Below the pieces are notes generated by a model. It searched no databases. It saw nothing but the letters and a program-made list of their open reading frames with translations, and had not been told where the DNA came from. A DNA stretch of 64,000 bases, taken from contig CP064989.1 of NCBI GenBank assembly GCA_016699875.1, forward strand, positions 712,788 through 776,787, written 5' to 3'. Shown here piece by piece: positions 7,715 through 60,482 of the stretch. Made by a program: the position numbers and the translations under genes. This DNA comes from Candidatus Moraniibacteriota bacterium. Lineage in GTDB: Bacteria; Patescibacteriota; Minisyncoccia; Moranbacterales; UBA1568. The stretch's first letter is position 1. Every line of letters begins with the position of its first letter.

Positions 7715-7752
7715 GGAAATAGGGAGAAAATAGATCTTGTACACAACAAAAA

Positions 7753-7778
7753 CTCCCGCGACATTGCGGGAGTTTTTG
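7753..7778. terminator. Rho-independent terminator (bidirectional) between the convergent FKBP gene and the CpxP-like gene
   Basis: Stem CTCCCGC-gacatt-GCGGGAG is followed by TTTTTGTTGTTTT and preceded by an A-run. Confidence 0.6.
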
Positions 7779-7814
7779 TTGTTTTGTTGACTCTGTCTAT
7801 GATCTGCGTGTGAC

Positions 7815-9147: not shown

Positions 9148-9166
9148 GTGCGACGACAGGCAAGTG

Positions 9167-9784
9167 CTAGGGCGTATCGTCAGTGAGGCGGCTGTAAATT
9201 CCCTGTTTTTCTGCCTGCTCTTTGAGCAGCTTTCGTCCTCTGTTTATGAGGGAGGCGACAGTTCCTTTCGGTTTTTCGACGATGTCCATAATCTCCTCAT
9301 AACTTTTCTCTTCGAGGAATTTCAGGATGAGCACTTCCCGATAGATGAGTGGAAGCGATTCTATTATGGCGGAGATTTTCCGGAGTTGGTTTTTGATATC
9401 TATGGTGTGCGTGATATTTTCCGGATCTTGAAAGAGATGGGAAAAATCCTCCGTATCGAGACCGATTGTCTTTGGTCGGGAGGATTTCTTTCGTATCGAA
9501 TCAATGATGGTGTTTCGGCAGATATGGTAGATCCATGTAGAGAATGCGAGGTCGTCATCGAATGCGTTGAGATTCTTATAAACTTTGATAAATGTTTCTT
9601 GCAGAATATCTTCCACGTCTTCATCGGAGGAGAATGATATTCGGCGGACATATCGAAACAACCGGTCCCAGTATCGTTCGACGATACCCGAAAAAGCATC
9701 CGGATTAGCAACTGAAGCAATTACGATATCGCTGTCGCTCAGCTCGTGATGCTGGCTCTCTTGGAGATTCTCTTTGATTACCAT
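9167..9784 (-). CDS. RNA polymerase sigma-70 factor, ECF subfamily
   Basis: Region 2 (FSTWIYHICRNTIIDSIRK) and a region 4 HTH (LPLIYREVLILKFLEEKSYEEIMDIVEKPKGTVASLINRGRKLLKE). 205 aa. Confidence 0.9.
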   Translation of the reverse strand: MVIKENLQESQHHELSDSDIVIASVANPDAFSGIVERYWDRLFRYVRRISFSSDEDVEDILQETFIKVYKNLNAFDDDLAFSTWIYHICRNTIIDSIRKKSSRPKTIGLDTEDFSHLFQDPENITHTIDIKNQLRKISAIIESLPLIYREVLILKFLEEKSYEEIMDIVEKPKGTVASLINRGRKLLKEQAEKQGIYSRLTDDTP

Positions 9785-31519: not shown

Positions 31520-34500
31520 ATGCATTTCTTCAATCAAAACAAAAAGAGGAGCCTCTTCACTTTGATTCGTTCGGTGTTGCAGGCAGAAGAGCATTTCATT
31601 GTACTTCTTTCGGTAGGAATACTGGCGGGAGTTTGTCTCTGGGGAATGGCTTCTCAGTCTGTTTTTGCGCAGGCAATTCCCGGCACGGCACAGGTGCTGG
31701 GGAGTGAGAAGCAAATCAGTGCTTCGGCAATACTTCTGGATGGCAAAGGATCGCCAGTGCCAAATGGCGAGTATGAAGTGCGGTTTAGTATCTACCGTGC
31801 CGACCGGACAACGAGCGATCCGTATCCATCTGACACGGATGCCCCGCTTCGTGTGTGGGAGGAAACGCAAACAGCGACCGTGAAGAATGGCATCATGAAT
31901 GCCTATCTCGGTGTCACGACGCCTTTCCCTGGAAATCTTACTTTCGAAGGCGGGGAATACTTTCTTGGGGTTCGCGTGGGAACGGATTCGGAAATGATTC
32001 CGCGGAAGAAGTTCGGCACTTTCACCAATGCGATTAATTCGCAGTTTTTGCGTGGTCGGACATTTGGCACAAATGCGGGAGATATTGCGACCTATGGCAC
32101 CAATGGGAAATTTGATATCAAGCAGCTTCCGACGGGAACGAGCGGGAATAAGTTGCTTCTTGCAAACAATAAGGATTTTACGGGAGTGCTCGATGATGTA
32201 TCGGGTCTCTTGGATGATGTCTCAACGCTTCAGAACGACAGTCATGCGCAGAATACCGATACGGGGACAGACTCCCTGACATTCAATGTAGGATCCGATA
32301 CGGCAGTCGGCTCATCAAACTTTGGTTTTACTGTTTCGAGCGCTGGCACGAAACCGGAGCTCCGATATAACAGCTCTTTGAGTCAGTGGGAATTCTCCGA
32401 TGACGGTTCGGTCTTTACGGCACTCAATGCTGGTTCTGGAGGTGGCGTGAATGGATCGGGCACGAGCGGACAGATTGCCTACTGGACAGGGACAAGCACG
32501 CTTGGATCGGAAGCACATCTCTCAGCTTCGCGTGGTGGAACGGGTATCGACACATCAAGCTCGACGGGTGTGCCAGTTGTTTCGTCCGGCACATGGAGCA
32601 TTGCCTCGGCACTTGGCGTGTCGCAGGGCGGCACAGGACTTTCCTCAACACCAGCGAATGGGGAATTGCTTATCGGGAATGGATCCGGGTTTGCACTTGC
32701 GACGCTTTCGACTGGAAGTGGTCTTGCGCTTTCGAATGGGGCAGGATCAATTAACTTGGCACTTGACGTGACGACGACAGGCACAACTGCTACAACGCAG
32801 TCGAATTCTGGACTTGAGCTGGTTGCATCGGGACTTCGGCTTCTTGGCGGATGCTCCGATGGGGAAATACTTAAATGGGACAGTGGAAGCTCGGTGTGGG
32901 CATGTTCGAGTGATCTTGGTGGTGCAACGGCGATTATCAATGTGAATGAAGGGTCGACAGCCTATACTGGCATTGATACGCTTACATTTGACGCGGATGA
33001 CTTCAGTATTTCCCAACTCGGAAGCGAAGCAACAGTGACGATTGATTATGCAAATTCCGGTATCGCTCGGCTTGGTCAGGATGAAACCGTGACGGGGGCT
33101 TGGGACTTTTCCGGAAATACTACTTTTGGCACGATTGTTGGTGGTGTCTGGAATGGTACAGCGATCGGTGCGACCTATGGTGGCACTGGCATTAATACCT
33201 CCGGCTCAACTGGCGTACCGTATATAACGGGTGGCACATGGAGCGTTGATGCGACGGCGCTCTCGGTTGCACATGGAGGAACGGGTGCGACGAGTCTTGC
33301 AAACTTGATTGCCCTCACCACCGACACCACCGGCAACTACGTCCAATCCATTACCAATGGCAACGGTATCACTGGTGGAAACGGAGGATCTGAAGGAGCA
33401 ACTCTCACCCTCTCCCTCAACCTCCTCACCTCCGCAGACGGCACCGGCTCCACCTCCTCCAACTCCGGCCTCGAATTCCAAGGCACCAGCTCCAATGAAC
33501 TCTCTCTCCTCCAAGGATGTGCTAACAACGAAGTCCTTTCTTGGAACGACTCTACAAATGTCTGGCAATGTGCCAGCGTCTCCGGAGTAGGCGGTGTTAC
33601 CGGAAGCGCCACCAGCGGACAGGTTGCCTATTGGACCGGAACCTCAACGCTCTCCGGAGAAGATCAGGTAACTGTTGCCCAAGGGGGAACGGGAATCGGA
33701 AGCTATACCACCGGAGACATTCTCTATGCGTCAGGAGCCACAACTCTTGCCAAACTTGCTGATGTTGCAACCGGAAATGTTCTTATCTCCGGAGGGGTGG
33801 GAGTGCAACCGCAGTGGGGGAAGGTGGCGCTCGGAAGTGCTGTGAGTGGGACTCTTCCGGTAGCGAATGGAGGAACGGGGGCGACTACGCTCACGGCCAA
33901 CGGAGTCATTTATGGAAACGGTACTGGCGCCATTCAAGCGACTTCTGCCGGAACCGACGCTCAAATACTCATAGCCAATGCTTCCGGTGTGCCTACGTTC
34001 GTTACTCTGGGCGGCGACGCTACGGTCAACAATTCCGGATCTCTCACCATTGCTGCCAACAGTGTTGCCCTCACCACCGACACCACCGGCAACTACGTCC
34101 AATCCATTACCAATGGCAACGGTATCACTGGTGGAAACGGAGGATCTGAAGGAGCAACTCTCACCCTCTCCCTCAACCTCCTCACCTCCGCAGACGGCAC
34201 CGGCTCCACCTCCTCCAACTCCGGCCTCGAATTCCAAGGCACCAGCTCCAATGAACTCTCTCTCCTCCAAGGATGTGCTAACAACGAAGTCCTTTCTTGG
34301 AACGACTCTACAAATGTCTGGCAATGTGCCAGCGTCTCCGGAGTAGGCGGTGTTACCGGAAGCGCCACCAGCGGACAGGTTGCCTATTGGACCGGAACCT
34401 CAACGCTCTCCGGAGAAGATCAGGTAACTGTTGCCCAAGGGGGAACGGGAATCGGAAGCTACACCACCGGAGACATTCTCTATGCGTCAGGAGCCACGAC

Positions 34501-37500
34501 TCTCGCTAAACTTGCTGATGTCGCAACCGGAAATGTTCTTATCTCCGGAGGGGTGGGAGTGCAACCGCAGTGGGGGAAGGTGGCTTTGGGCACATATACC
34601 TCAGGGAATTACGTGGCGAATGCGAGTACGTCGACACTTACAGGGTTGACTGGCGGGTCCGGCGGATCGGTGGGCGCGTCGCTCTCGCTCGCTTTTGACT
34701 ACACGACTCCGCTTACGGGTGACCCGGCGCTTTCGGCAAACAATGCTATCTTTGGAACCAACGGACTCATCTTCGAAGGGGCGACCGCGAATACATTTGA
34801 GACCTATGTCACTTTGACTGACCCAACGGCAGATCGAACGCTGACGCTTCCCAATGTGACTGGAACGATTGCAACGCTGAATGGCGGTCAAATATTTACT
34901 TCCGCCACATGGAACGGCACGGCGATCGGCGCGACCTATGGCGGTACAGGCATCAATACGATTGGTTCAACCGGTGTGCCATATATAAATGGCGGGGCAT
35001 GGAGCGTCGACTCAGCGGCGCTTGCCGTGGCGCATGGTGGGACGGGACTTACGACTTTTGGCGGGACAAATACGCTTCTTTATACGACAACTGCTAATAC
35101 GCTCGCGTCTATTTCGGCTGCGGCAAATAGTATTCTGGTGACGAACGGGTCGAATGTTCCTTCGCTTTCGACCGATATCCCGACGGCGGTTACTATTGGT
35201 TCCGCCTATATCTACCGTGTGGGCGGTACTGATGTGTCGCTCGCCGACGGCGGCACCGGCTCCTCTCTCTCCGACCCCAATGCCGACCGCATCCTCTTCT
35301 GGGACGACTCCGCCGGAGCTGTCACCTGGCTTTCTCCTTCTTCCAACCTCTCTATTAGTACAACCACTCTTGATCTCGCCTCTTCCATAAACATCAATAC
35401 GCTCCAACTCGGCACCGACGGCACCGACGGTTCTTTCATCATCTACTCCGAACAAGGGGCAACTGACTATACCACTACCTTCCAACCGGGAGCACAGTCA
35501 CAAAACATTACCTATACGCTTCCGAATGATGATGGAACAAGCGGACAGGTGCTTATTACGGATGGGACGGGAGCACTCTCGTGGTCGAGTGTTTCCGGTG
35601 CGGGCGGTGTGACAGGGACAAGCACGAGCGGGTATGCAGTCTATTGGGATAGTACGAACTCGATTGCTGGCGAGCCATACCTCTCCTTAACTCGCGGTGG
35701 AACAGGAACAACGCTTTCCGATCCGGGAGCCGATCGCATTCTCTTCTGGGACGATTCGGTCGGTGCGATTGATTGGCTTTCTGCCGGATCAAATCTTTCT
35801 ATTAGTGGAACGACCATTAACCTCGCGTCGAGCATACAACTCGGATCGGACGGATCGGACGGAGTGCTTACCATTTATTCCGAGCAGGGTGCAACCGATT
35901 ATACCTCGACTTTCCAGCCGGGAACGCAGACGCAGAATATCACTTATACGCTGCCGGCGGATGATGGTGCTGCGAGTCAGGTACTCGTCACTGATGGGAC
36001 CGGGAACCTTTCGTGGCAATCGGTGTCTGGCGTTGGCGCGCTCGATGGATCAGGTTTAACTGATGCTGTTGCCTACTGGGTGGATAGCAACACGCTTACC
36101 TATGAAACAGCGCTCGCCCTTTCCCGTGGCGGCACCGGCTCCTCTCTCTCCGACCCCAATGCTGACCGCATCCTCTTCTGGGACGACTCTGCTGGAGCGG
36201 TCACTTGGCTTTCTCCTTCTTCCAACCTCTCTATTAGTACAACCACTCTTGACCTCGCTTCTTCTGTAAACGTCAATACTCTCCAACTCGGTACCGACGG
36301 CACCGACGGTTCTTTCATCATCTACTCCGAACAAGGGGCAACTGACTATACCACTACCTTCCAACCGGGAGCACAGTCACAGAACATCACCTATACGCTT
36401 CCGAATGATGATGGAACAAGCGGACAGGTGCTCATCACGGATGGATCAGGCATACTCTCCTGGACATCCGCTGGCTCTGGCGGTATCGGTGACATTACCG
36501 CGATCGGAGATGTAGCGAGTGGGGATGCCTTTACGGCAAGTGGTACCCAGGGAACCAGTCTCTACTTCTATGATGTGGATGGAAGGGGACAACTCACGAT
36601 TGCCAATCTCACGGCTGCTCGGATGTATACGCTTCCAGATGCCACTGGAACTATTATCACTACGGGCAATCTCACCGGTATTACCGCAACAGGCACGATT
36701 GCGAGTGGGACGTGGAATGGGACAGCGATCGGTGCAGCGTATGGCGGAACCGGACTTGATACATCCGGTGGTTCGACGACTGGAGTGCCTACTATTAGTA
36801 GTGGGGTGTGGAGTGTCTCGAGTTCGCTTGATGTGACGCTTGGTGGTACCGGCACGAGCGCACTTTCCTCCGGCGGTCTTCTCTATGGTAATGGCACTTC
36901 GGCAATCGGCGCTTTGAGCGTGATGACGAATGGCCAACTCCTTATCGGCGATGGCACGGGCGTGCCGACACTTGCGACGCTTTCGGAAGGGGATGGGGTT
37001 ACGGTGACAAATGGCGCCGGTTCCATCACCCTCTCCCTCAACCTCCTCACCTCCGCAGACGGTACCGGCTCCACCTCCTCCAACTCCGGCCTCGAATTCC
37101 AAGGCACCAGCTCCAATGAACTCTCTCTCCTCCAAGGATGTGCTAACAACGAAGTCCTTTCTTGGAACGACTCTACAAATGTCTGGCAATGTGCCAGCGT
37201 CTCCGGAGTAGGCGGTGTTACCGGAAGCGCCACCAGCGGACAGGTTGCCTATTGGACCGGAACCTCAACGCTCTCCGGAGAAGATCAGGTAACTGTTGCC
37301 CAAGGGGAACGGGAATCGGAAGCTATACCACCGGAGACATTCTCTATGCGTCAGGAGCCACAACTCTTGCCAAACTTGCTGATGTCGCAACCGGAAATGT
37401 TCTTATCTCCGGAGGGGTGGGAGTGGCACCGAGCTGGGGGAAGGTGGCATTGGGTACGCATACCTCGGGGAATTATGTTGCAAATGCGAGCACGTCGACC

Positions 37501-40500
37501 TTGACCGGTCTTACGGGCGGATCCGGCGGATCGGCGGGCGCGTCGCTCTCGCTCGCTTTTGACTACACGACTCCGCTTACGGGTGATCCGGCGCTTTCGG
37601 CAAATAATACAATCTTTGGAACAAACGGCCTTATATTTGAAGGGGCGACCGCGAATACATTTGAGACCTATGTCACTTTGACTGACCCAACGGCAGATCG
37701 AACACTGACACTTCCCAATGTGACCGGAACGATTGCAACGCTGAATGGCGGTCAAACATTTACTTCCGCCACATGGAACGGCACGGCGATCGGTGCGACC
37801 TATGGCGGTACAGGTATCAATACGATTGGTTCAACCGGTGTGCCATATATAAATGGCGGGGCGTGGAGCGTCGACTCAACAGCGCTTGCCGTGGCACATG
37901 GTGGCACGGGACTTACGACTTTTGGCGGGACAAATACGCTTCTTTATACGACAACTGCTAATACGCTCGCGTCTATTTCAGCTGCGGCAAATAGTATTCT
38001 GGTGACGAACGGGTCGAATGTTCCTTCGCTTGCAACTGATATCCCGACGGCGGTTACTATTGGTTCTGCCTATATCTACCGTGTGGGCGGTACTGATATA
38101 TCGCTCGCCGACGGCGGCACCGGCTCCTCTCTCTCCGACCCCAATGCTGACCGCATCCTTTTCTGGGACGACTCTGCCGGAGCGGTCACCTGGCTTTCTC
38201 CTTCTTCCAACCTCTCTATTAGTACAACCACTCTTGACCTCGCTTCTTCCGTAAACATCAATACTCTCCAACTCGGCACCGACGGCTCCGACGGCTCCTT
38301 CATCATCTACTCCGAACAAGGGGCAACTGACTATACCACTACCTTCCAACCGGGAGCACAGTCACAAAACATTACCTATACGCTTCCGAATGATGATGGA
38401 ACAAGCGGACAGGTGCTTATTACGGATGGGACGGGAGCACTCTCGTGGTCGAGTGTTTCCGGTGCGGGCGGTGTGACAGGGACAAGCACGAGCGGGTATG
38501 CAGTCTATTGGGATAGTACGAACTCGATTGCTGGCGAGCCATACCTCTCCTTAACTCGCGGTGGAACAGGAACAACGCTCTCCGACCCCAATGCTGACCG
38601 CATCCTTTTCTGGGACGACTCTGCCGGAGCGGTCACCTGGCTTTCTCCTTCTTCCAACCTCTCTATTAGTACAACCACTCTTGACCTCGCTTCTTCCGTA
38701 AACATCAATACTCTCCAACTCGGCACCGACGGCTCCGACGGCTCCTTCATCATCTACTCCGAACAAGGGGCAACTGACTATACCACTACCTTCCAACCGG
38801 GAGCACAGTCACAAAACATTACCTATACGCTTCCGAATGATGATGGAACAAGCGGACAGGTGCTTATTACGGATGGGACGGGAGCACTCTCGTGGTCGAG
38901 TGTTTCCGGTGCGGGCGGTGTGACAGGGACAAGCACGAGCGGGTATGCAGTCTATTGGGATAGTACGAACTCGATTGCTGGCGAGCCATACCTCTCCTTA
39001 ACTCGCGGTGGAACAGGAACAACGCTCTCCGACCCCAATGCTGACCGCATCCTTTTCTGGGACGACTCTGCCGGAGCGGTCACCTGGCTTTCTCCTTCTT
39101 CCAACTCTCTCTATTAGTACAACCACTCTTGACCTCGCTTCTTCCGTAAACATCAATACTCTCCAACTCGGCACCGACGGCTCCGACGGCTCCTTCATCA
39201 TCTACTCCGAACAAGGGGCAACTGACTATACCACTACCTTCCAACCGGGAGCACAGTCACAAAACATTACCTATACGCTTCCGAATGATGATGGAACAAG
39301 CGGACAGGTGCTTATTACGGATGGGACGGGCATACTCTCCTGGACATCCGCTGGCTCTGGCGGCATCGGTGACATTACCGCGATCGGAGATGTAGCGAGT
39401 GGGGATGCCTTTACGGCAAGTGGTACCCAGGGAACCAGTCTCTACTTCTATGATGCGGACGGCAGAGGACAACTCACGATTGCCAATCTTTCTGCGGCAC
39501 GGACGTATACGTTGCCGGATGTGAGTGGCACAATTGCAACACTGAATGGCGGACAGACCTTTACGAGTGCTACGTGGAACGGATCGACAGTCGGAGTGGC
39601 GTATGGCGGAACAGGCGTTACTACCTTTGGCGGGACGAATACGCTCCTCTATACGACTTCCGCCAATACACTGACATCACTCGCTACGGCAAACAGCTCG
39701 ATTCTTATTACGAATGGCTCCGGTGTTCCATCCATTGCAACCGATATCCCGACAGCAGTTACTATCGGCTCTTCCTATATCTATCGTGCGGGCGGGACTG
39801 ATGTGTCGGTTGCGGATGGTGGTACGGGCTTGAGTTCCTATACTGCTGGCGATCTTCTCTATGCTTCCAATACAACAACGCTCGCCGGGCTCGCCGATAT
39901 TGCCACCGGAAACGTGCTCCTCTCGGGTGGCGTTAGTTCGTCGCCATTGTGGGGAAAGGTAGTGCTTGGGACGCATACGACCGGGAACTATGTCGCATCG
40001 GCAACGGCGAGTGGGGGACTCACGATGACCGGGACGGCTGGAGGAAGTCTCGGCATTCTTCTTCAGCCTTCGACGGACGCGCTCTCCTCGACCACGAGCT
40101 CCGGATCAGGCATGGAACTTCTCTCGACTGGACTCTCACTTTTACAGGGTTGTTCAAATGAACAAGTGCTTTCTTGGAACGAAGCATCCGATGTGTGGGA
40201 ATGTTCGGACAAAACTGCTGGCACGAGCGACTGGACAGCAGTGATTGGGACGCCGAATTTCTCCTATCTCACTGATACGAGTGCACATTTGGTGGTAGGT
40301 GGATCGACGGAAGCGGCTGGTGCTTTTGATTTTGATGTGACTACCACAAAGCTCAATATTGGCGCGGCGGCAAGTTTTGACACATTCATTATTGCTCCGG
40401 TTACGAAGGGAACAACGTCCCATTCTGGGACATTGACTACTGCCGATCTTACAACAGCAAGTCGCACATGGACCCTCCCCGACGAAACTGGCACCATCTG

Positions 40501-43500
40501 TACCACTGGCAGCGTCTGCTCCGGCTACCAAGCTGCCGGCTCCTACCTCACCACTTCTACTTCCTTTGCCGGCGGAGACATTGCTTCCGGAACCTACAAT
40601 ACTCTCTCTCTTGCTTCCAGTATCACTCGCGATACCGAATGGGATACCGCTGCCGAGATCAATGCGGCTACAACAGACACCGACTTCGCTTACGCCGCCC
40701 TCTCCAACCTCGCCTCCGTCGCCATCAACACGAGCCTCATCTCCGATACGGACAATACCGATGATCTCGGTTCTGCTGCTATTGGCTGGAAAGATATTTA
40801 CTCCCGCACCCTCAAGCTTGATGGATCTACCTCTGGCACGATTACTCTCCAAGCAGCTGCTACTGCAGGTACCAATACTATCACCCTTCCGGCAAGCACG
40901 GGGACAGTAGCGCTTACGAGCGATCTTCACTCCGCTGTCACATTCGGAGTCTCATCTTACGACTATCTCACCCTTTCCGGACAAGAAATCACTCTTGGAC
41001 AAATTGATCTCACAACCGATGTGACAGGAACGCTGCCGGTGGGGAATGGGGGGACGGGCGTAGCGACCTTCGGCGGGACGAATACACTTCTCTATACTTC
41101 TTCTGCTAATACGCTTGCATCGATTGCGACTGCAAATTCTTCATTCTTGACCACGAACGGTTCTGGTGTGCCGAGCTTTGCCGCGCTTTCTGCAGACACA
41201 TTTACTCAGTATGCACTTCTTGCCGGAAGAAGCGGAGGGCAGACCATTATTGGCGGAACAGGTGCGGGCGATGACCTCACATTCCAGACAACCTCCAATG
41301 GTACCAAAGGCTCATATATCTTCTCCGAACTCGGAAGTGGACTGGTGCTTTCAACATCGGGAACGCTTTCAGTGGTTACAAATACGCTTCATACACAGAA
41401 TACGGACACAGGAACAGATGGCACGACATTCACGGTTGGGGATGGCACTACGGTATTTACGGTTGATACCAGCGCGACCAACGATACTATTATTATCGAG
41501 CAGGGAACATACGATTCTATACTCTCTTTCACTCAACCGGGTGCTGCTGACCAAACCTATACGTTCGCAACAGGAGGAACAGTTTGTACCACTGGCAGCG
41601 TCTGCTCCGGCTACCAAGCCGCCGGCTCCTACCTCACCACTTCTACTTCCTTTGCCGGCGGAGATATCGCTTCCGGAACCTACAATACTCTCTCTCTTGC
41701 TTCCAGTATCACTCGCGATACCGAATGGGATACCGCTGCCGAGATCAATGCGGCTACAACAGACACCGACTTCGCTTACGCCGCCCTCTCTAATCTCTCC
41801 TCCGTCGCCATCAACACGAGCCTTATCTCCGATACGGACAATACCGATGATCTCGGTTCTGCTGCTATTGGCTGGAAAGATATTTACTCCCGCACCCTCA
41901 AGCTTGATGGATCTACCTCTGGCACGATTACTCTCCAAGCAGCCGCTACTGCAGGTACCAACACCATCACCCTTCCGGCAAGTACAGGGACAGTAGCGCT
42001 CACCAGTGATCTTCACTCTGCGGTTACCCTCTCTGGATCCTACGACTACATCACCCTCTCTGGACAAGACATCGTCCGAGGACAAATCGACCTTACGACC
42101 GATGTGACAGGGACACTGCCGGTGGGGAATGGGGGGACGGGCGCGATTACATTTACCACGAATGGTATTCTCTATGGCAATGGTACGAGTGCTATTGCGG
42201 TAACAGCAGCTGGAACAGATACGCAAATACTTTCCAATTCATCGGGCACGCCGGGATGGATCAATCAGTCCTCTATTAGTGCGGGCACACTCGACGGTAT
42301 CGATTCGCTCTCATTCCTCCGATCCGACACGAGTGACTCTTTCACGAGCGGCACGCTTTCATTTTCCGACGGAACACTGCTCGATCTCTCATCAATTGCT
42401 CATGATGACTCGGCTCCACAAGGTTTGAAACTCCCACAGAACACAACGCTCACAAATATCGTTGGCGGTGGGGCAGGGTATATCGCGTATGATACGACGG
42501 CGAATACGGTAAAGATGTTTAATGGCACCTCTTGGCTGAGCATTGGTGGTGCTTCAACTACACTTCAAGATGCGTACAGTAATGATGTTGATGGATCTGA
42601 CGCAACGATTTCTCTCACAACCGCCGATGATTCACTTATCTTTACCAATCCATCTTCAAGCGGGACGGACTCCGCGTTTTTGCTCCAGCTTAATCAGGCT
42701 AATACGACCGCTGGTGTTGTTGCGCTTGACATTATTCAGTCATCAAACAATGCGAATGCTGTCAACATCACTGCCAACTCAATCGATACGGAGACAGGAC
42801 TCTCTGTTACGGCGAATGCGCTTACAACTGGAACGGGTTTAAGCGTTACACATACTACAAGTGTCATTGCTAATGGTGGATCGCTTTTGCGTCTTTCTTC
42901 AAGTTCGGTTGATACCAGTACGACAACGGGGACACTTCTCGATCTTTCTTCCACCGGATCAACTGCCGGAACGATTGCGCTTATTACCAACAACACGGCT
43001 TCATTCACAGGAATTACTCAAAGCATCGTAGCGAACGGTATTTCGTCGGGTACCGGTCTTGCTATTGCCTCTTCCTCTGCCGCTATGACCGGTTCTCTCC
43101 AGTCCATCACGCTTTCCGGAAGCAATGCTTCAAACACAGGCAATCTTCTCTATCTCAATAGTTCCGGTGCGAACAGTGTTGCGAAAGCTTTGAACGTTGC
43201 TATTGCCTCGACCGGGAACTTCTCGACAACCGGAGGTGTGAACTTTACCTTTAGTGGAGCACACACGGGGACAGGATTTGCCGTAAGCGATGCAACGGCA
43301 ACCGGGACAGCAGTCTCTATCACGGCAAACAGTATCTCGACCGGCACGGGTGTGAGTATTGCTTCGACGTCGACCGCTGGCGGTGCGAGTGGATCTTCCT
43401 ATCTCCTCAATCTCTCCCGAAGCGGTGCGAATTCCAATTCGAGCCATACAGCATACGGCATATATTCCTCAGTGACGAATACCGGTACCTCGGCAGTCAA

Positions 43501-48575: not shown

Positions 48576-50078
48576 ATGACACAGAATTCAATCGTGGAGG
48601 AGATTCGGAAGCGAATAGAACAATTTGAGTCGACAGTGAAACGCGAAGAGACGGGCGCCGTGCTCGAAGTGGGCGATGGCGTAGCACGCGTCTCGGGACT
48701 TGCGAATGTTGCCGCGGGAGAGATGGTGGAGTTTGAAAATGGCGTTTTAGGAATGGCGCTCAATCTTGAGGAAGATATGGCGGGGGTTATCCTCTTGGGT
48801 GAGGCGGGCGATCTTCGAGAGGGAAGCCGTGTCAAATCAACGGGAAAAATTCTCTCGGTGCCGGTCGGGAAGAATGTGATCGGGCGCGTAGTGAATGCTC
48901 TGGGTGTTCCGATTGATGGCAGGGGCGAGATGGTGCCCGATGCGTTCCGTTCGGTTGAGCGGGTAGCGCCCGGCGTGATGGCGCGCGAGTCAGTGAAGCA
49001 GCCTTTGCAGACCGGTATCAAGGCGATCGATGCGCTCATCCCGGTCGGGCGCGGTCAGCGCGAACTCATCATTGGTGACCGACAGACCGGGAAAACCGCA
49101 GTTGCAATTGATACAATCCTGAATCAAAAGGGTCAAAACGTTCTCTGCTTCTACATTGCAATCGGACAGAAAGAATCCAAAGTAGCGCGCATTGTGTCTG
49201 AGTTGGAAAAAGGTGGCGCCATGGAATATACGACGGTGGTCGTTGCTGGTGTATCGGAGCCGGCGGCGCTCTCATTTCTCTCGCCCTATGCGGGGTGCGC
49301 GATGGGTGAGTACTTCATGGAGCAGGGAAAGGACGTACTTGTTGTTTACGACGATCTCTCGAAACATGCCGCTGCTTACCGACAAATCTCGCTCATCCTT
49401 CGTCGGCCGCCGGGGCGCGAGGCATACCCGGGCGATGTGTTTTATTTGCACTCGCGACTTCTCGAGCGAAGTGCGAAACTTTCCAAAGATATGGGGAGCG
49501 GATCCATTACGGCACTTCCTATTATTGAGACGCAGGCGGGTGATGTGTCGGCGTATATCCCGACCAATGTTATCTCGATTACCGACGGACAGATTTACCT
49601 CGAGGCCGACCTGTTCTACAAAGGTATTCGTCCGGCTTTGAATGTGGGACTCTCCGTGTCGCGTGTCGGGAGTTCGGCTCAGATCAAAGCGATGAAGCAG
49701 GTCGCGGGGACACTCCGGTTGGATTTGGCGCAGTTCCGCGAGCTTGAAGCCTTTGCGCAGTTCGGTTCCGATCTCGATGAGAAGACGAAAGAACAGATCG
49801 AACGCGGCAAGCGCGGTGTCGAGGTGCTCAAACAGAAACAGTACTCGCCGCTTTCGGTTGAGCAGGAAGTTGCTGTGCTTTACGCGCTCACACGCGGACA
49901 TCTCGACAAGGTGCCGGTTGAGAGGATGGGCGAATGGGAAGAGAAATTTCTCGAGTATCTCGAGACGGATGGCGATGATTTTCTCGGAGCGCTTGGGAGC
50001 AAGAAATCGCTCGATGAAGAAACGGAAGAAATGCTCAAGAGACATATCGAGACATTTCAAAAGAGCTTTTCGATGTGA
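48576..50078 (+). CDS. atpA: F0F1 ATP synthase subunit alpha
   Basis: Walker A GDRQTGKT, alpha-specific regions, 500 aa. Confidence 0.95.
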
Positions 50079-50089
50079 TATTTTTTTGT

Positions 50090-50218
50090 TCGTCATTCCC
50101 GTGAAAACGGGAATCCAGTTGCGACTCGTTCAGGATTGCATTCTGTGAATGAAACTTGCAACGATATTTGTTGAGGGTGAGTGGAACCTGGTTCCCCGCC
50201 TTCGCGGGGATGACGAGT
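50090..50218 (+). repeat. 129-bp hairpin-rich palindromic repeat element in the atpA-atpG intergenic region; same family as the in-frame copy in leuS
   Basis: Terminal inverted repeats CGTCATTCCCG / CGGGGATGACG. 5' hairpin ATTCCCGT-gaaa-ACGGGAAT (GNRA loop). 3' hairpin TCCCCGC-cttc-GCGGGGA. A central stem GTTGC...GCAAC. The 5' 27 nt and 3' ~25 nt are homologous to 56395-56467. Confidence 0.6.
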
Positions 50219-50241
50219 GTGGATAAAATCTATTTTGCTTT

Positions 50242-51156
50242 ATGGCTGGGACACGTGAAATCAGGCGGCGGATCAAGAGTGTGAAAAACACGGGGAAGAT
50301 AACCCGTGCCATGGAAATGATCTCGTCGGTCAAAATGCGCAAGGCGGCGGCAAGTGTCGCGGCGCTCCGGCCGTATGCGAAGAGTGCGTGGGATGTGCTC
50401 TCTGTGGTATCGCGTGCGCGCGATGTGCGGGAATCAATGCCGCTTCTTGAAGAGCGCTCGGTGAGGAGACAGCTTTTCGTCGTGGTGACATCGAATCGCG
50501 GTTTGTGCGGATCGTTCAATACGCAGGTGTTTCGCCAGCTTCGGGCGGAAATAGCCTTGACTCGGGAGCGTTATGCGGGAGCGGGGATCGATTTTGTGTC
50601 GCTTGGGCGGAAGGGTGACGCGGGGTTGAAATTTCTGAACGGAGAGATTGTCGCGTCTTTTCCGGAGGTGATCGCGGATCCGTCCGCTTCGGAAATCCGT
50701 TCGATCACGAAGTTTCTCTTTGAAGGATTTGAATCCGAACGATGGGATCGCGTTTCACTGGTGTATACCGACTTTGTTTCGGCGCTTGTGCAAACGGTGC
50801 GTGTCCATCAGGTGTTGCCGCTCTTCGAGCGTGACGCCGAGGAGCAGATCGCCGAGATGGGCGGTGAGGAACCGACTGGAGCGGCGGATGTTCTTAAAGC
50901 CGAGTATGCGATAGAGCCGGCGCCTGAGTCAGTGCTTCACGCACTTCTCTTCCGCTTGGTTGAGATGCAGGTGCTTCATGCCGTACTGGAGTCGAACGCT
51001 TCGCAAGAAGCGGCGCGCATGACCGCGATGCGCAATGCGAGCGACGCCGCAAAGGATATGACTGAGAGCTTCACACTTCTCTACAACCAACTCCGCCAGG
51101 CAAAAGTGACGCAAGAAATCGCCGAACTCTCGGCGGGTATGGCGGCAGTGTCATAG
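50242..51156 (+). CDS. atpG: F0F1 ATP synthase subunit gamma
   Basis: N-terminal EIRRRIKSVKNTGKITRAMEMISSVKMRKA and C-terminal KVTQEIAELSAGMAAV helices typical of gamma. Confidence 0.9.
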   Translation: MAGTREIRRRIKSVKNTGKITRAMEMISSVKMRKAAASVAALRPYAKSAWDVLSVVSRARDVRESMPLLEERSVRRQLFVVVTSNRGLCGSFNTQVFRQLRAEIALTRERYAGAGIDFVSLGRKGDAGLKFLNGEIVASFPEVIADPSASEIRSITKFLFEGFESERWDRVSLVYTDFVSALVQTVRVHQVLPLFERDAEEQIAEMGGEEPTGAADVLKAEYAIEPAPESVLHALLFRLVEMQVLHAVLESNASQEAARMTAMRNASDAAKDMTESFTLLYNQLRQAKVTQEIAELSAGMAAVS

Positions 51157-51366
51157 ATGGGAAAGAAGGAGAGGGAGAAGAAATTGGGAATAAATTGGTG
51201 GAGAGGTGTGAGAGAAATATACTTTCAAAGGTTGACTCAAAACCATCATTCGGGATTTTAGGAGAGCTTTCTGAAATTTCGAACCGTTGTTTTGAGAATC
51301 TGGGGAAAGTAAAAACCCCATCAATTTGAATGATGAGGTTTCTTTCGGAGCGTGTGTGTCTGGTGT

Positions 51367-51729
51367 CTACCAGACCGACATGTGCCACAACTTGTAAATG
51401 CCGTAAGTTACGACACCTATTCCCACAAGGAGCGCTGCATGGGTTGCGAATACGGCTACATACCCTAGCCACGCCTTTAGAAGGACAGGTAGGAAATATT
51501 CTAGACGATCTTCTTGGAAGCTGAGTCGTACTTTTTCGGTGGGAGTTTCACCTGATAGGCTATCCTTGTTGTAGAAAAAGTTCCAGTTATGGTCTTTTGA
51601 CCACGTAAAAAGTCGCAGGAGTATTCCCATGAGCAGTATACTGATTGACACTAGTATGAGCGATATTAGCGTCAAAATAGCATATGATGGTAGTTCATTT
51701 ACTACTACGACTTCGATCATCTCAATCAT
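51367..51729 (-). CDS. Hypothetical 2-TM membrane protein encoded antisense within the atp operon, between atpG and atpD
   Basis: 120 aa with two clear hydrophobic helices (AILTLISLILVSISILLMGILLRLF and LGYVAVFATHAALLVGIGVVTYGI). The overlapping plus-strand ORF is not protein-like. It is flanked by unusually long (150-210 bp) non-coding spacers. Confidence 0.45.
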   Translation of the reverse strand: MIEMIEVVVVNELPSYAILTLISLILVSISILLMGILLRLFTWSKDHNWNFFYNKDSLSGETPTEKVRLSFQEDRLEYFLPVLLKAWLGYVAVFATHAALLVGIGVVTYGIYKLWHMSVW

Positions 51730-51845
51730 CTCGGTACTCCTTTCTTGGGGCTGTAGTTGAAAGCAGGGTTGTTCAAGAGCGATTTGTATTTATAGCATGT
51801 TACAAAAAGTTTGTCAATATACATTGATTGTTTATACTCATTTAA

Positions 51846-53258
<1,413 letters not shown>

Positions 53259-53726: not shown

Positions 53727-53768
53727 GAAATTCCCGTCTGCGAAATGCGCGGGAATTTTCTTTGTTAC
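53727..53768 (+). terminator. Rho-independent terminator of the atp operon
   Basis: AAATTCCCG-tctgcgaaatgcg-CGGGAATTT hairpin followed by TTCTTTGTT. Confidence 0.6.
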
Positions 53769-54957: not shown

Positions 54958-55428
54958 GTGTTCAAGATGCCAAGTTCGTTCTCCGTTTATTTGCGGCGAG
55001 GCAATGCCTTGTTCGTGTTGTTGTTCTTACTGGCAGACAAGAATATAGGGCTTCTCAAGGATGCCTATGTGCAAGGAGATGCGCACATATTCATTCGCCA
55101 ATGTAGATCTTTCAGATGTCCAATTGTGGATCCATGGGCTGCAAACATCCTTGCAGTCGCTTTGCTTGTCGGGTTGGACGGAATATCCGATGAGAACGAT
55201 GAGGAGGCAATTTCTTTATTGCGCAAAGTAACATCTATCGGGGGTTGTCCATCGGCATGGCATTCTCTCGGAGTGTGTTACTTGCACGGTATAGGGATGT
55301 CTCCGGATAGAAACGAAGCAACGCGGTGTTTCTTGGAGGGGGCAAAACGAGGATGCCTTCTTTGCCGTAGTAACTTTCACGATATCCCACTCCCGCATAA
55401 TTCAGGGAAGGTGATATCTCAACTGTAG
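54958..55428 (+). CDS. Sel1-like repeat (TPR-like) protein
   Basis: [33 protein letters not shown] fits the Sel1 repeat consensus. N-terminal hydrophobic segment. Confidence 0.5.
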
Positions 55429-55526
55429 TGAAAGGAGCTGTGTCAGTTTTGGCCAGCTCCTCATTTATTATCTTGAAAAACCCCCTTCTTCGGGCTAGGA
55501 TGGAGCTACTTGTTAAACTGTGGCCT

Positions 55527-58500
55527 ATGAAACATGCTTCATATGATCCGAAAGAAATAGAGCCGAAGTGGCAGAAATATTGGGAGGAGCAGGGGCTTTT
55601 TCATGCGAAGACCGGATCGAAAAAGAAGAAATTTTACGGGTTGGTCGAGTTTCCATACCCGTCTGGAGACGGGCTTCATACCGGGCATGTGCGCGGGTAT
55701 ACGGCGATGGATGTGATCGCACGGAAGCGGCGGCACGAAGGATTTGAAGTACTTTATCCGATCGGATGGGATGCGTTTGGACTCCCGACCGAGAATTTTG
55801 CTATCAAGCACGGCGTGCGTCCGGAAGTGGTGACGAAGAAAAACACGGATAATTTCCGGCGACAGATGCAGTCGCTCGGGTTTTCGTTTGACTGGTCGCG
55901 GGAAATAAATACGACCGATCCAGAATACTATAAGTGGACGCAGTGGATATTTCTTCAGCTTTTCAAAAAAGGGTTGGCATATAAACAGAAAATGGAAATC
56001 AACTGGTGTCCGTCATGCAAGATCGGTCTTGCGAATGAAGAAGCGCAGGGCGGCGTGTGCGAACGGTGTGGTGGTCCAACGGAAAAAAAAGAGAAAGAGC
56101 AGTGGATGTTGGCGATTACAAAATACGCCGATCGGTTGGACAAGGATTTGGACAGTGTTAACTATCTCGACAAGATAAAAGTTCAACAAAGAAACTGGAT
56201 CGGGAGGTCGGAGGGAGCGCTGGTGAAATTTAAAATTTCTTCCTCCTCCCACCCTCATCAAGATGAGAGTTCTTCTCGGTTAGAGGATCGGGAACGATAT
56301 ATCGAGGTATTCACGACGCGAGTGGATACGATTTTCGGGTGCACATATGTGGTGGTGGCGCCGGAGCACCACATTATTGCACATCTTTTGCAATGTCATT
56401 CCCGCGAAGGCGGGAATCCAGGCTCTGCGAACATTCTGGATCCCCGGGTCAAGCCCGAGGATGACAGCTTACTTTTGGTTGAGAATGCAGAGAAGATTCG
56501 AGAGTATATAGAAGAGGTGAAAAAGAAATCCGAGGAAGATCGGCTCGATGCGACGAAAGAAAAAACCGGCGTAAAGCTCGAAGGGATTGAGGCAGTGAAT
56601 CCGTTTACCGGTGAAAGTGTGCCGGTATTCGTTGCTGACTATGTATTGGGAAATTATGGCACGGGTGCGGTGATGGCAGTCCCGGCGCATGACGAACGGG
56701 ATTGGGAATTTGCGAAGAAGTACCGACTTCCCTTGAAATCGGTAGTTATTCCGAGTGTTGTAAATCAGAAGAATCTCCCGGTTCCAGGAAAATCAGTCGT
56801 GTTTCGAGAGACTATCAGTGCCATCGTGTATGACCCGAAGAAAAATAAGTATCTTGCTCTGAAGTGGAAAAAAAATGATTGGACTACATTCGTGATTGGC
56901 GGGGTGGAACAAGGGGAGGATGTTATTGATGCGGCAAAGCGAGAAGTTCGAGAGGAAACAGGCTATACCGATCTCAAATATATTCGGACTTTGGGCGGAC
57001 CGGTAGAGGCGAAATATTTCGTGTCACATAAAGACGAAAATCGCATGGCACATATACATGCCGTGTTGTTTGAATTGGAGAGTGAAGACAGAATATCTGT
57101 TTCAGAAGAGGAGAAAGAAAAACATCCGACAATATGGATTGAGGAATCGTCTCTTAGTCCGGATGTAATGTTTGATGTCGATGCTCCATTCTGGTTTGCT
57201 CGCCTAAAGTCTGAGGAAAATGAGGTTGTTACTGAAAGCGGCGTCCTCATTGAATCTGGAGAATTCTCCGGTCTGAAATCCGAAGAAGCGCGGGAGAAAA
57301 TGATCCAATGGCTGGAGGAAAAAGGACTCGGGAAGAAGCAGACGAATTACAAACTTCGAGACTGGGTATTTTCTCGGCAGCGATATTGGGGCGAGCCGAT
57401 TCCCTTGGTGAAATGTGATGCGTGCGGATGGGTACCGGTTTCCGAAGACGAGCTTCCTGTCGAATTGCCAAGAGTCGAGTCGTATACACCGACGGACACG
57501 GGGGAGTCGCCCCTCTCGGCGATGGAGGAATGGGTCGCGACGAAGTGTCCGAAGTGCGGCGGACCGGCACAGCGCGAGACGGACACGATGCCTAACTGGG
57601 CGGGATCGAGCTGGTACTTTCTTCGATACGCCGATCCGGAAAATACGAAAGCACTTGCATCAAAGAGCGCGCTCGAATATTGGACGCCCGTCGATTGGTA
57701 CAATGGCGGCATGGAGCACACGACGCTTCACCTCTTGTATTCTCGTTTTTGGCACAAGTTTCTCTATGATATCGGCGTAGTGCCGACCTCCGAGCCGTAT
57801 CAGAAGCGCACCTCGCATGGGCTTATCCTTGCCGAGGGCGGCGTCAAGATGAGCAAGTCGAAAGGGAATGTGGTGAATCCGGATGATATTGTGCGGCGGT
57901 TCGGCGCGGATACGCTTCGGGTGTACGAAATGTTCATGGGACCATTCGATCAAAATGTCGCCTGGAGTACGGAGAGTATTGCCGGGTCAAGACGGTTTTT
58001 GGAGAAAGTGTGGAAATTGGGTATTGGAATGAAGAATCAGGAAACGGGAAGAAAGAAGGAAGATGCTCACGCGGGAAATGTTTCCGTGAAAACTCTGCTG
58101 CATAAAACGATCAAAAAAGTGTCTGAGGATATCGAGGCGATGCGGTTTAATACGGCGATTAGCGCGCTCATGATTTTGGTGAATGAGATGGAGAAAACAG
58201 AGTCGATGTCGCGAGAAGATTTTGAAACGCTGCTCGTATTACTTTCTCCGTTTGCACCGCATGTTGCGGAAGAGCTCTGGAGTCTTGTCGGGAATGCGGG
58301 GTCAATTCTCTCGACCAAGTGGCCGGAAGCAAACCCGAAGTATCTCGTGGCAGATGAAGTGGAAGTGGTAGTGCAAGTCAACGGAAAACTTCGCGCGCGG
58401 CTTCGTATTGTCTCCGGATCGACGAGAGAAGAAGTGGAGAGCGCGGCACGTGCTGATCTTCTTGTGTCGAAGCATCTCGATGGAAAAGAAGTTCGAAAGA

Positions 58501-58544
58501 CCGTCTTTGTCCAAGACCGCCTGGTGAATTTCGTGGTGGGTTGA
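55527..58544 (+). CDS. leuS: Leucyl-tRNA synthetase carrying (i) a 24-aa insertion in the editing domain encoded by a repeat element and (ii) an embedded Nudix hydrolase domain
   Basis: HIGH-type HTGH, KMSKS (VKMSKSKGN), the LeuRS zinc knuckle ([12 protein letters not shown]...CERCGG), editing-domain markers ([19 protein letters not shown] ... [22 protein letters not shown]) and the C-terminal [11 protein letters not shown] domain. The track ORF starts at 55428; [21 protein letters not shown] at 55527 is the typical LeuRS start. Confidence 0.95.
56395..56467 (+). repeat. ~72-bp copy of the hairpin repeat element inserted in-frame in the leuS editing domain
   Basis: GTCATTCCCGCGAAGGCGGGAATCCAGG...CTGGATCCCCGGGTCAAGCCCGAGGATGACAG. 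Its ends are homologous to the atp-operon element at 50090-50218, including compensatory stem changes. It is translated as [25 protein letters not shown]. Confidence 0.55.
56755..57235 (+). other. Nudix hydrolase domain embedded in LeuRS, between the editing domain and the return to the catalytic core
   Basis: [51 protein letters not shown] contains a complete Nudix box (G-x5-E-x7-R-E-U-x-E-E-x-G-U). E. coli LeuRS has ~25 aa at this position versus ~165 aa here. Confidence 0.7.
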
Positions 58545-59039
58545 AGTTGACAGGCGTCCGGGAATTTGGCTAGGATAGCGGTGAGCTTTGCGAAACCGCA
58601 AGGCGGGGCAGTTGATTTACCAATTTGTTGAGGAGATTCGAGATGATCAAGAAACCAGTCATTTTCCCGATTGATGGACAAACGACATATACGAATGTGA
58701 TAGATTCGTTTTTCAATCTATTCCAACATGATGCGGCAAGAGAAATGGTTGGGATGGTTAAGTTTAACGATGCGTTGCACATCTCTCCTGGTGGAGGCAA
58801 GGAACTTATCACTGGAATTCGAGATGTTTCGAGAGAGAATGGATGGAGTATGGCGGAAATTTTCCTTGATCTGAAATTATTCGATGTCTCGGGGACGATT
58901 AGTAATATGCTAAAACAGTATGCTGAAATGTCCCCAGCAGTTATTACGGTGTCATCGGAGGTTTCATGCCAATCGCTCCTTAGAACCTGTTTACAATCTT
59001 CTGGTACACTGAGGACATAATCCTCAAACCAAAAGAACC

Positions 59040-59486
59040 ATGTATCCAAGCGACATAACCCGAGAACAATTCGAACACATCAGACCATTTCTCGAATCAA
59101 CCAGGAAGAGAACCAAACCAAAGACACTTGATTCCTATGACGTATTCAACGCTCTGCTCTACATTCTGGTCACGGGTTGCCAATGGAGGGCACTTCCCAA
59201 GGATTATCCAAAATGGCAGAGTGTCTATCGACACTTCCTTGTCTGGAAGGAACGAAAAAACAAACAGACAGAGAGTATGCTTGAGCAAGTCTTAAAAAAA
59301 TTGGTCGAACAAGAACGTATGAAAAATGGCAAACAATGCAAAACCAGTTTCTGCATCGTTGATGCTCAAAGTGTCAAGAATACAGATACGGCTCGAGAAA
59401 AAGGTTATGATGCAGGAAAAAAGTTTCCGGTATCAAGCGACATATTCTCGTTGACACCAACGGATTGCCGCATGCGTTCACGGTAA
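59040..59486 (+). CDS. IS5-family transposase OrfA (N-terminal HTH / DUF4096-like part)
   Basis: YDVFNALLYILVTGCQWRALPKDYPKWQSVYRHFLVWKE is typical of IS5/IS1031 transposase N-termini. Slippery heptamer A-AAA-AAG at ~59419-59425. Confidence 0.8.
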   Translation: MYPSDITREQFEHIRPFLESTRKRTKPKTLDSYDVFNALLYILVTGCQWRALPKDYPKWQSVYRHFLVWKERKNKQTESMLEQVLKKLVEQERMKNGKQCKTSFCIVDAQSVKNTDTAREKGYDAGKKFPVSSDIFSLTPTDCRMRSR

Positions 59487-59821
59487 CCACTGCTAACGTC
59501 ACTGATCGAAATGGAGCTATCCAAGCCGTCAAGGCAAACAAAAAACACCTTTCACGGGTGGAGAAACTCTTGACTGATGGTAGTTATACCGGAGAAAACT
59601 TCGCCAAAGCGATCAAAGCATGTATCGGTGCGGAAGTGGGAGTAGCTAAACGAAACGAATTGCATACGTTTGCCGTTCTTCCTCAGCGCTGGGTGGTCGA
59701 GAGAAGCTTCTCCTGGCTGGAGAAATGCCGAAGGCTCTGGAAGAATTGCGAACGGACACTGGATTCGAGCTTACAGATGATGGTTTTAAGTTTTGCTCGA
59801 TTGTTGTTGAAAAGATTGTAA
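59420..59821 (+). CDS. IS5-family transposase OrfB (DDE catalytic part), probably expressed as an OrfAB fusion by -1 frameshifting
   Basis: The -1 frame continues KVSGIKRHILVDTNGLPHAFTVTTANVTDRN...LTDGSYTGENF...PQRWVVERSFSWLEKCRRL (DDE_Tnp_1-like). The track ORF is 59465..59821. Confidence 0.75.
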   Translation, partial: KVSGIKRHILVDTNGLPHAFTVTTANVTDRNGAIQAVKANKKHLSRVEKLLTDGSYTGENFAKAIKACIGAEVGVAKRNELHTFAVLPQRWVVERSFSWLEKCRRLWKNCERTLDSSLQMMVLSFARLLLKRL

Positions 59822-60482
59822 ACAGGTTCTTAGGATACGTGAAATATTTCCGAGTGCACTCATTGCCTTGGTTGGAGCTCTTACGGATATCTCGGAGGAT
59901 GAATTCAGGAGGAAGCATGGAATGACTCCTGCAGAATATATCGCAGAAATGCTCCTGTTCTTCGAAGATGAAATTGGTGAGGAGAATCCGATAGGTGCTT
60001 TTGTATGTAGTCCGCTCGAAGTACGGTGTCTCAAGGATGAATTTGGTGACCGATTCAAGGCAATTGTCCCCGGAGTTCGGAGTTTATTCATGGAGCCGGA
60101 TCATCAGAAACGGGTGGCGAGTCCATACGACGCACTTCTGGCTGGTGCGGAATATTTGGTTATCGGTTCGCAGCTCAAGGAGGGTTTGAAAGCGGGGCTT
60201 TTTCAGGAAGATCGGGTGAATCGCACGAACGCAGAGATTAAACGTGCTTATACGCAGCTTGTTCACTGATAGCTAGCGAGTTTTAGGTGTCGAGAGAGCA
60301 TCAGAGACACTCTCTCACTTTCTAAAGTGGAGGAAATAGCTGGTACCCCGGTTCATGCGGTCTCAACATGTTCCGGACTTTTGCAGATGTTGGATGACCT
60401 CGGAATGAATCGAGAGGCAGATGCAATTCGATCATATCGAGAACAATATGGATTCTTCTAAAAGACGAAAAAGCCTGTTTAT

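Follow-up and report, generated by a model that had tools for sequence, protein, structure and literature searches.

An Ssn-related hairpin-repeat dimer inserted between atpA and atpG of a Moranbacteria-like (Patescibacteria) genome

Among the repetitive extragenic palindromes (REPs) that carry a CGTC tag, family CGTC-1 is marked by a stem of 8 bp that opens with AT, a loop of 4 nt and a CCA tail. Most of its copies form dimers with the tags outward (HH); they lie close behind ORFs and sometimes in frame within genes, including tRNA synthetase genes. Neisseria dRS3 and Rickettsia RPE-6 are members (Di Nocera 2013, PMC3733652). The motif has also been defined as the 28-nt NTS (CGTCATTCCCGCGMAVGCGGGAATCYRG, one mismatch allowed), together with the degenerate SRM (Chenal 2025, Nat Commun, PMC11893778). 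SsnA, a single-domain GIY-YIG protein of ~100 aa, binds and cuts the motif as single-stranded DNA (ssDNA) only, not as double-stranded DNA or RNA (PMC11893778). As a rule, inverted motifs flank the ssn gene on both sides (NTS-ssnA-NTS), and control of natural transformation has been proposed as the role of Ssn (Chenal 2025, PMC11893778). Neisseria doublets have, in addition, been described as REPINs tied to a Group 2 RAYT (Bertels and Rainey, bioRxiv 10.1101/2021.07.10.451892), so that both Ssn and a RAYT are candidates for the enzyme that mobilises the repeat.

Here, we describe two dimers of this kind in a 64-kb window (the whole stretch of DNA that was analysed, 64,000 nt) from a Moranbacteria-like genome of the Patescibacteria. 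The first is an HH dimer of two Ssn-related hairpin motifs (NTS/SRM, the same as the CGTC-1 REP and Neisseria dRS3), inserted into an originally short spacer between atpA and atpG, and its sister is an in-frame insertion in leuS. This kind of repeat is already described, and the present member comes from a new host phylum. The explanation that we hold, with good confidence, to be the best overall is an inserted SRM HH dimer with Ssn-type DNA behaviour and co-option at the RNA level at the atpA-atpG junction. By AtpG, the closest proteins are those of Candidatus Moraniibacteriota and further Patescibacteria MAGs; because the nearest named neighbours are Moraniibacteriota, we take the labels "uncultured Bdellovibrionales" and "uncultured Gammaproteobacteria" on some relatives to be unreliable. 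Look-ups with the AtpG of the window, and with P0001, which is 100% identical to it, led to no contig.

Anatomy and identity of the two hairpin dimers

The coordinates of the element, its modules and its surroundings are collected in Table 1. The atpA-atpG spacer, given as 164 nt in a first-pass annotation made from the sequence, is there but is 163 nt long (atpA end 50078, atpG start 50242). The same annotation had described 11-bp terminal inverted repeats, a 5' hairpin with a GAAA tetraloop, a central stem and a perfect 3' hairpin, and all of these were recovered: the repeats are CGTCATTCCCG (50091-50101) and CGGGGATGACG (50205-50215), complementary at 10 of 11 positions; the 5' hairpin, ATTCCCGT-GAAA-ACGGGAAT, has 8 bp and spans 50095-50114; in the central stem GTTGC (50118-50122) pairs with GCAAC (50158-50162), as read from the sequence; and the 3' hairpin is TCCCCGC-CTTC-GCGGGGA (50193-50210), found in 0 of 100 shuffles. 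Neither hairpin sequence occurs in shuffled windows. The two ends of the element represent the same module in opposite orientation and differ by two compensated changes in the stem, one of them at stem position 3, where the 3' module has C-G and the 5' module T-A.

Table 1. Coordinates of the atp and leuS dimers, their modules and neighbouring features in the window
Feature	Coordinates	Strand	Composition and remarks
atpA	48576..50078	+	Pfam
Flank, atpA stop codon to element, 12 nt	50079..50090	+	Identical in the lineage with 88% identical AtpG
Whole atp element, 125 nt	50091..50215	.	HH dimer (tag-outward) of two SRM/CGTC-1 hairpin modules and a 69-nt structured spacer
atp 5' module, 28 nt	50091..50118	+	CGTC-ATTCCCGT-GAAA-ACGGGAAT-CCAG; tag, 8-bp stem, 4-nt loop, tail; matches the SRM search sequence
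Internal spacer, 69 nt	50119..50187	+	Own stems; sequence unique to the lineage
atp 3' module, 28 nt	50188..50215	-	Minus-strand reading CGTC-ATCCCCGC-GAAG-GCGGGGAA-CCAG; 7 bp and one A/A mismatch
Flank, element to atpG start codon, 26 nt	50216..50241	+	Conserved save one 2-nt indel (against L222-L224)
atpG	50242..51156	+	Pfam; last gene before the minus-strand ORF that splits the operon
atpC intrinsic terminator	53728..53762	+	AAATTCCC(gtct)GCG-aaatg-CGCGGGAATTT then T-run; only the core in common with the element
leuS dimer, 73 nt	56394..56466	.	Second HH dimer, in frame in the editing-domain region of leuS; encodes ~24 aa
leuS 5' module	56394..56421	+	TGTC-ATTCCCGC-GAAG-GCGGGAAT-CCAG; 27/28 against the Neisseria NTS consensus
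leuS 3' module	56436..56466	-	TGTC-ATCCTCGGG-CTTGA-CCCGGGGAT-CCAG; 9-bp stem, 5-nt loop, CGTC-3/4-like

Folded as RNA, the 163-nt spacer reaches -60.2 kcal/mol (z = -5.1); as ssDNA, the 125-nt element reaches -26.4 kcal/mol (z = -4.2) and the hairpin of its 5' module -7.8 kcal/mol (z = -4.2). With DNA parameters all four modules of the window fold into oriented ssDNA hairpins that leave the 5' tag and the 3' tail unpaired, at z scores between -2.5 and -4.6. These four are the only SRM-type modules in the 64 kb and make up the two dimers. A search of the spacer against Rfam 15 gave no family at its gathering score (best FtrB, 21 bits against a threshold of 66), and permissive thresholds returned noise only.

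The degenerate SRM search sequence (HGTCWYN(0-2)YYVSBRHN(0-5)WNVSBRGN(0-2)RNCYNB) is matched by all four modules, at 50091(+), 50215(-), 56394(+) and 56466(-), against a shuffle mean of 0.44; one further match in the window, at 50654, is due to chance. The strict NTS consensus has no exact match in the window, the leuS 5' module departing from it at one position (T1) and the atp modules at two to three. Judged by sequence, the modules are best classed as SRM-type variants, not as canonical NTS. The CGTC-1 definition (CGTC or TGTC tag, 8-bp stem with A-T then T-A, 4-nt loop, CCA tail) fits three of them, one with an A/A mismatch at the first pair; the stem of the fourth has 9 bp and its loop 5 nt. 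In both elements the units are inverted, with the tags outside and a short spacer between, which is the arrangement that defines an HH dimer.

As the first-pass annotation had noted, the ends of the atp element match the intragenic leuS copy, over 31 nt (50184-50214 against 56395-56425, 87% complementary). The modules are 69 nt apart in the atp dimer and 14 nt apart in the leuS dimer, so that the two doublets of the window differ in spacer as well as in partner module, and the near-identical doublet population that marks REPINs is not seen.

Covariation, proposed earlier as a check, bears out the stem: in sequences picked by tag and tail alone, stem position 3 is UA in 12, CG in 10 and GC in 4, and the observed score was reached by 0 of 500 shuffles. 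The pattern of the 5' module (GTCATTCCCG-N6-CGGGAATCCAG) occurs in at least 120 viral contigs, many of the matches being inverted pairs ~100 nt apart, and its exact variant (T-A closing pair, GAAA loop) in at least 120 metagenome contigs; dimers are typically 57-112 nt long. The first-pass suggestion of a REP/MITE-type mobile repeat was therefore correct, the modules being CGTC-1 REPs (NTS/SRM) in tag-outward dimers. Its view of the atp element as the founding copy of a small repeat family was wrong, since this is one member of a cross-phylum superfamily treated in papers from 2000 to 2025.

The breadth of the superfamily also bears on a local origin, by duplication or capture of the atpC terminator hairpin, which the first-pass annotation had thought plausible. 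The resemblance that it saw between that terminator and the 5' module holds for the ATTCCCG/CGGGAAT core; the GTC tag and the CCAG tail are missing and the stem has a 4-nt bulge, and with the core alone in common, a relationship between terminator and element is uncertain. The module, tag and tail included, is near-identical in Neisseria, phage and environmental contigs and brackets a GIY-YIG nuclease gene in relatives, whose own atpC terminators are unrelated in sequence. Its identity across phyla leaves an origin from the atpC terminator unsupported, and we regard such capture as scarcely credible in spite of the shared ATTCCCG...CGGGAAT. If the two are related at all, a decayed solo module now serving as the atpC terminator is the likelier direction.

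Other repeats of the window are of different kinds. Inverted repeats of 24 nt (96% complementary) at 58977-59835 enclose two overlapping ORFs (DUF4096 and DDE_Tnp_1), which makes this an IS4/IS5-type insertion sequence, probably with a frameshifted transposase. Several families of direct repeats of 80-300 nt (D1-D16; 94-100% identical) extend over ~9 kb at 33000-42200 and are presumably repeat modules within surface-protein genes of very large size. At 7743-7782, a 17-bp inverted repeat without mismatches encloses a 6-nt loop (ACAACAAAAACTCCCGC / GCGGGAGTTTTTGTTGT) and looks like a bidirectional terminator.

Empty sites and nuclease-bracketed units in relatives

Both copies are insertions, because relatives carry the corresponding sites without them. 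The atpA-atpG spacer measures 10-34 nt in L122, L123, L124, L129, L177, L225 and L353, and the 24-aa LeuS insert is absent from eight relatives (L121, L133, L134, L135, L136, L177, L225 and L227). A LeuS-fragment protein search for the lineage with 88% identical AtpG returned distant fragments only.

Independent CGTC dimers of other subtypes occupy the same atpA-atpG junction in L133, L135, L140 and L144, and other relatives have different palindromes, an unrelated spacer, an extra gene or a ~220-nt "element X" there. Element X lies in the atpA-atpG spacer of two other lineages (L121 9778-10000; L354 297-559), with a core that is ~90% identical between them and a closing stem that differs by several compensatory changes. 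Rfam has no match for it, and it may represent either a structured RNA that is not yet described or a mobile element of the miniature kind.

The atp operon of the window is also interrupted downstream, between atpG and atpD, by a minus-strand ORF of 120 aa (51367-51729; region 51157-51878) that has no Pfam match. At the atpA/atpG, atpG/atpD and atpD/atpC junctions of relatives (L222-L232, L353) other cargo is found, including a 287-297-aa ORF, an ORF6N and a 23S_rRNA_IVP/bAvd-like ORF. L353 keeps a compact order, atpA-12 nt-atpG-20 nt-atpD.

The leuS region varies likewise. In L133 (6073-9236) LeuS has a CGTC-type insert, in frame but elsewhere in the protein (VIASEARQSP...). The leuS gene of this genome is preceded, close to its true start, by a CGTC dimer and is followed directly by a complete module-GIY-YIG-module unit. 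The LeuRS of the window (55428-58544) has a NUDIX domain inserted inside the enzyme (aa 460-576, Pfam), an unusual fusion for a tRNA synthetase, and LeuRS-internal NUDIX domains are also found in L225 (two NUDIX matches) and L227.

The CPR relatives commonly carry CGTC/SRM dimers, and some pairs of modules enclose a gene. In L133 the bracket around an ORF of 97 aa directly downstream of leuS is formed by a module identical to the 5' one of the leuS dimer, and L138 has a decayed version of the same bracket; the ORF flanked by the inverted modules in L133/L138 is a GIY-YIG protein (PF01541, E = 1.8e-17). When loci were picked by the GIY-YIG protein pattern alone, about 19 of 21 had flanking modules, mostly as a tag-outward bracket, and the published NTS-ssnA-NTS association is thereby reproduced independently. 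We do not present this bracket as a new discovery, as it was published in 2025 as Ssn/NTS. Ssn-like homologues number in the thousands and include proteins named from Moraniibacteriota and Patescibacteria MAGs. The L133 nuclease (8904-9194) is 67-68% identical to Methylomonas/Rhodocyclaceae proteins (P0184, P0186, P0216), far above the relatedness of the hosts, which suggests cross-phylum transfer of the unit. No ssn gene was found in the 64-kb window (tblastn).

By analogy with the published family, each module would act as an oriented ssDNA hairpin, with a GTC tag, an 8-9-bp stem (A-T and T-A first), a 4-5-nt loop and a C-rich tail, that a small single-domain GIY-YIG Ssn would bind and cut as ssDNA only. 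The short dimers look like derivatives of the nuclease unit, because ssn genes are bracketed by the same inverted modules; they may be non-autonomous, internally deleted forms of it, or satellites. A RAYT-mobilised REPIN, in which an IS200/IS605-type tyrosine transposase and not Ssn would have moved the doublet, would have the same anatomy, and a Group 2 RAYT is the enzyme to which Bertels and Rainey tie the ATTCCCGCGCAGGCGGGAATC doublets of Neisseria. We think this unlikely, as the bracketed gene is a GIY-YIG gene both in the CPR relatives and in the loci selected by protein, and no tyrosine transposase flanked by CGTC repeats was found by Di Nocera et al. (PMC3733652).

Conservation of the spacer and a possible role in atp mRNA

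An orthologous element occupies the same place in L222, L223 and L224, three contigs from different samples whose AtpG is 88% identical to that of the window. Samples that contain this lineage include ERZ22666141, ERZ22666005 and ERR12510810. The 163-nt spacer differs from theirs by two substitutions and one 2-nt indel (98.8% identity), against 83% nucleotide identity of atpA and atpG in the L222 lineage, with third codon positions at 58-61%. The binomial probability of so few changes in the spacer is 3e-10 at the coding rate and ~3e-27 at a rate of 35%, itself set below the ~40% divergence of third positions; the comparison is one between a single pair of lineages, as L222, L223 and L224 are near-identical to one another. 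Other long intergenic regions of the window do not align with the L222 lineage at all, and across 7 kb no other bin exceeds 92% identity. The conserved block begins directly behind the stop codon of atpA, whose last 19 nt contain three mismatches, and extends to the start codon of atpG. A 25-aa ORF within the spacer (50148-50225) was considered as a candidate and rejected, the 2-nt indel of L222 shifting its frame.

Both substitutions are neutral to the fold. One falls in a predicted loop; the other is G-C in the L222 fold and, by inspection, G-U in an alternative stem of the window, where the minimum free energy structure pairs the substituted base 50178 with A50154 and not as in the alternative stem. 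Searches for a second copy of the 69-nt internal spacer in the window, across 3.3 Mb of fetched loci (blastn-short; orthologues only) and in a JGI metagenome scan (0 matches) yielded none.

A near-invariant spacer amid genes that are 83% identical is much better preserved than would be expected of a junk insertion, and suggests that the element was co-opted, probably as an mRNA structure, or otherwise that it spread very recently. On sequence comparison it would be read most simply as purifying selection on the whole spacer, acting on an mRNA structure and on the atpG initiation region. Lying inside the predicted atpA-atpG transcript, the element must also form a very stable RNA structure, and after co-option it would most likely serve, between the genes for alpha and gamma, as a structure for mRNA stability, processing or translation coupling. 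Because SsnA does not bind RNA, such a role would be independent of the known biochemistry of the family. With the minus-strand ORF 51367-51729 lying between atpG and atpD, atpA and atpG would end one transcription unit, and a stabilising or attenuating hairpin between them would be meaningful there. The structured RNA element put forward in the first-pass annotation is plausible: the contrast in identity between spacer and genes favours it, and both substitutions fit an RNA fold.

The main competitor is a purely selfish or neutral Ssn/REP miniature element with no host function, whose near-identity in the two lineages would reflect recent horizontal spread or gene conversion. We treat this as a serious possibility that we do not favour. 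Close relatives show great plasticity at the atpA-atpG junction, the distribution of the element is patchy, palindromic spacers are common throughout these genomes, and the 67-68% identity of Ssn-like proteins between CPR and Proteobacteria points to frequent transfer; with conservation read from one lineage pair, recent spread with site preference would also fit. Against it, conservation stops sharply at the atpA stop and atpG start codons and extends beyond the inverted repeats over the flanks of 12 nt and 26 nt; the absence of any other bin above 92% identity in the 7 kb, and of a second copy of the 69-nt spacer in the window, the fetched loci and the metagenome scan, likewise tells against it.

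Attenuation by REPs of the BIME type is known in E. coli. GC-rich hairpins directly after atpA might in the same way terminate or attenuate transcription, so that less atpG than atpA is expressed, which would fit the alpha3:gamma1 stoichiometry of the enzyme. This is improbable here, as neither hairpin is followed by a T-run and a terminator scan of the spacer finds nothing. Nor does the spacer hold a promoter-like site for atpG, so that atpG depends on read-through.

A broader form of the co-option reading, in which an Ssn-type dimer was domesticated in a Moranbacteria lineage as a cis-acting atp mRNA element, at a junction that in these reduced genomes serves as a slot repeatedly filled by different structured elements, element X among them, is offered tentatively. 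Its domestication part draws on near-invariance (98.8%) at a divergence where ~40% of synonymous sites have changed. As for the slot, a z below -3 is found for 46% of the atpA-atpG spacers in 24 relatives, as against 26% of 114 other co-directional spacers, a difference that is not significant (P = 0.058), so that structure at this junction may simply reflect where palindromic elements land and recurrent occupancy is by itself weak evidence.

These observations extend Ssn-related repeats, together with the GIY-YIG nuclease, to the ultra-small bacteria of the candidate phyla. There the targets of insertion include core operons and an essential tRNA synthetase gene, whose reading frame is kept. 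The observations also supply one concrete case of a repeat seemingly under strong purifying selection after insertion. Were the mRNA role true, the ATP synthase operon would have gained a regulatory part from a mobile repeat; otherwise, the element is an ordinary member of a known repeat superfamily. To what is already described, the present analysis adds the evidence from empty sites, the insertion within the leuS reading frame, and strong sequence conservation suggestive of co-option.

Comparison with described repeat systems

The closest described system is NTS/SRM with Ssn (PMC11893778), with which the window shares the oriented hairpin, the GTC tag, the ATTCCCGC stem, the 4-nt loop and the C after the palindrome, and its relatives share the NTS-ssn-NTS unit with identical modules. 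It differs in its host, the Patescibacteria (Moranbacteria-like) being absent from the main text of PMC11893778, in having no ssn within the window and a low density of two dimers per 64 kb, and in that one copy lies inside an operon and is unusually conserved.

The CGTC-1 HH dimers of PMC3733652 have the same tag, the same 8-bp stem beginning AT, the same 4-nt loop and the same CCA tail. Tag-outward dimers with 20-100-bp spacers predominate among them, and the atp and leuS dimers are likewise tag-outward; position just downstream of an ORF in a co-directional pair, and in-frame intragenic dimers that encode 20-30 aa, including those in tRNA synthetase genes, are further points in common. In contrast, the hosts listed in that survey belong to five phyla, with Alphaproteobacteria in the majority, and no enzyme dedicated to the repeats came to light there. 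The leuS dimer also differs in joining a CGTC-1 module to one whose stem has 9 bp and whose loop has 5 nt. CGTC-1 REPs reach tens to thousands of copies per genome; the 64 kb analysed here contain two dimers.

REPINs and RAYTs (Bertels and Rainey 2011; bioRxiv 10.1101/2021.07.10.451892) likewise consist of two inverted REPs that form one long hairpin, and are non-autonomous, with a single-copy enzyme gene bracketed by the same repeats. In the relatives studied here, however, the bracketed gene encodes a GIY-YIG nuclease and not a tyrosine HUH transposase, and no population of near-identical copies is visible in the window. The leuS copy, finally, resembles the Rickettsia palindromic elements RPE-4 (CGTC-4) and RPE-6 (CGTC-1) in being a palindromic insertion that stays in frame and leaves an essential protein gene undisrupted, although the host phylum is another and the window holds a single such case.
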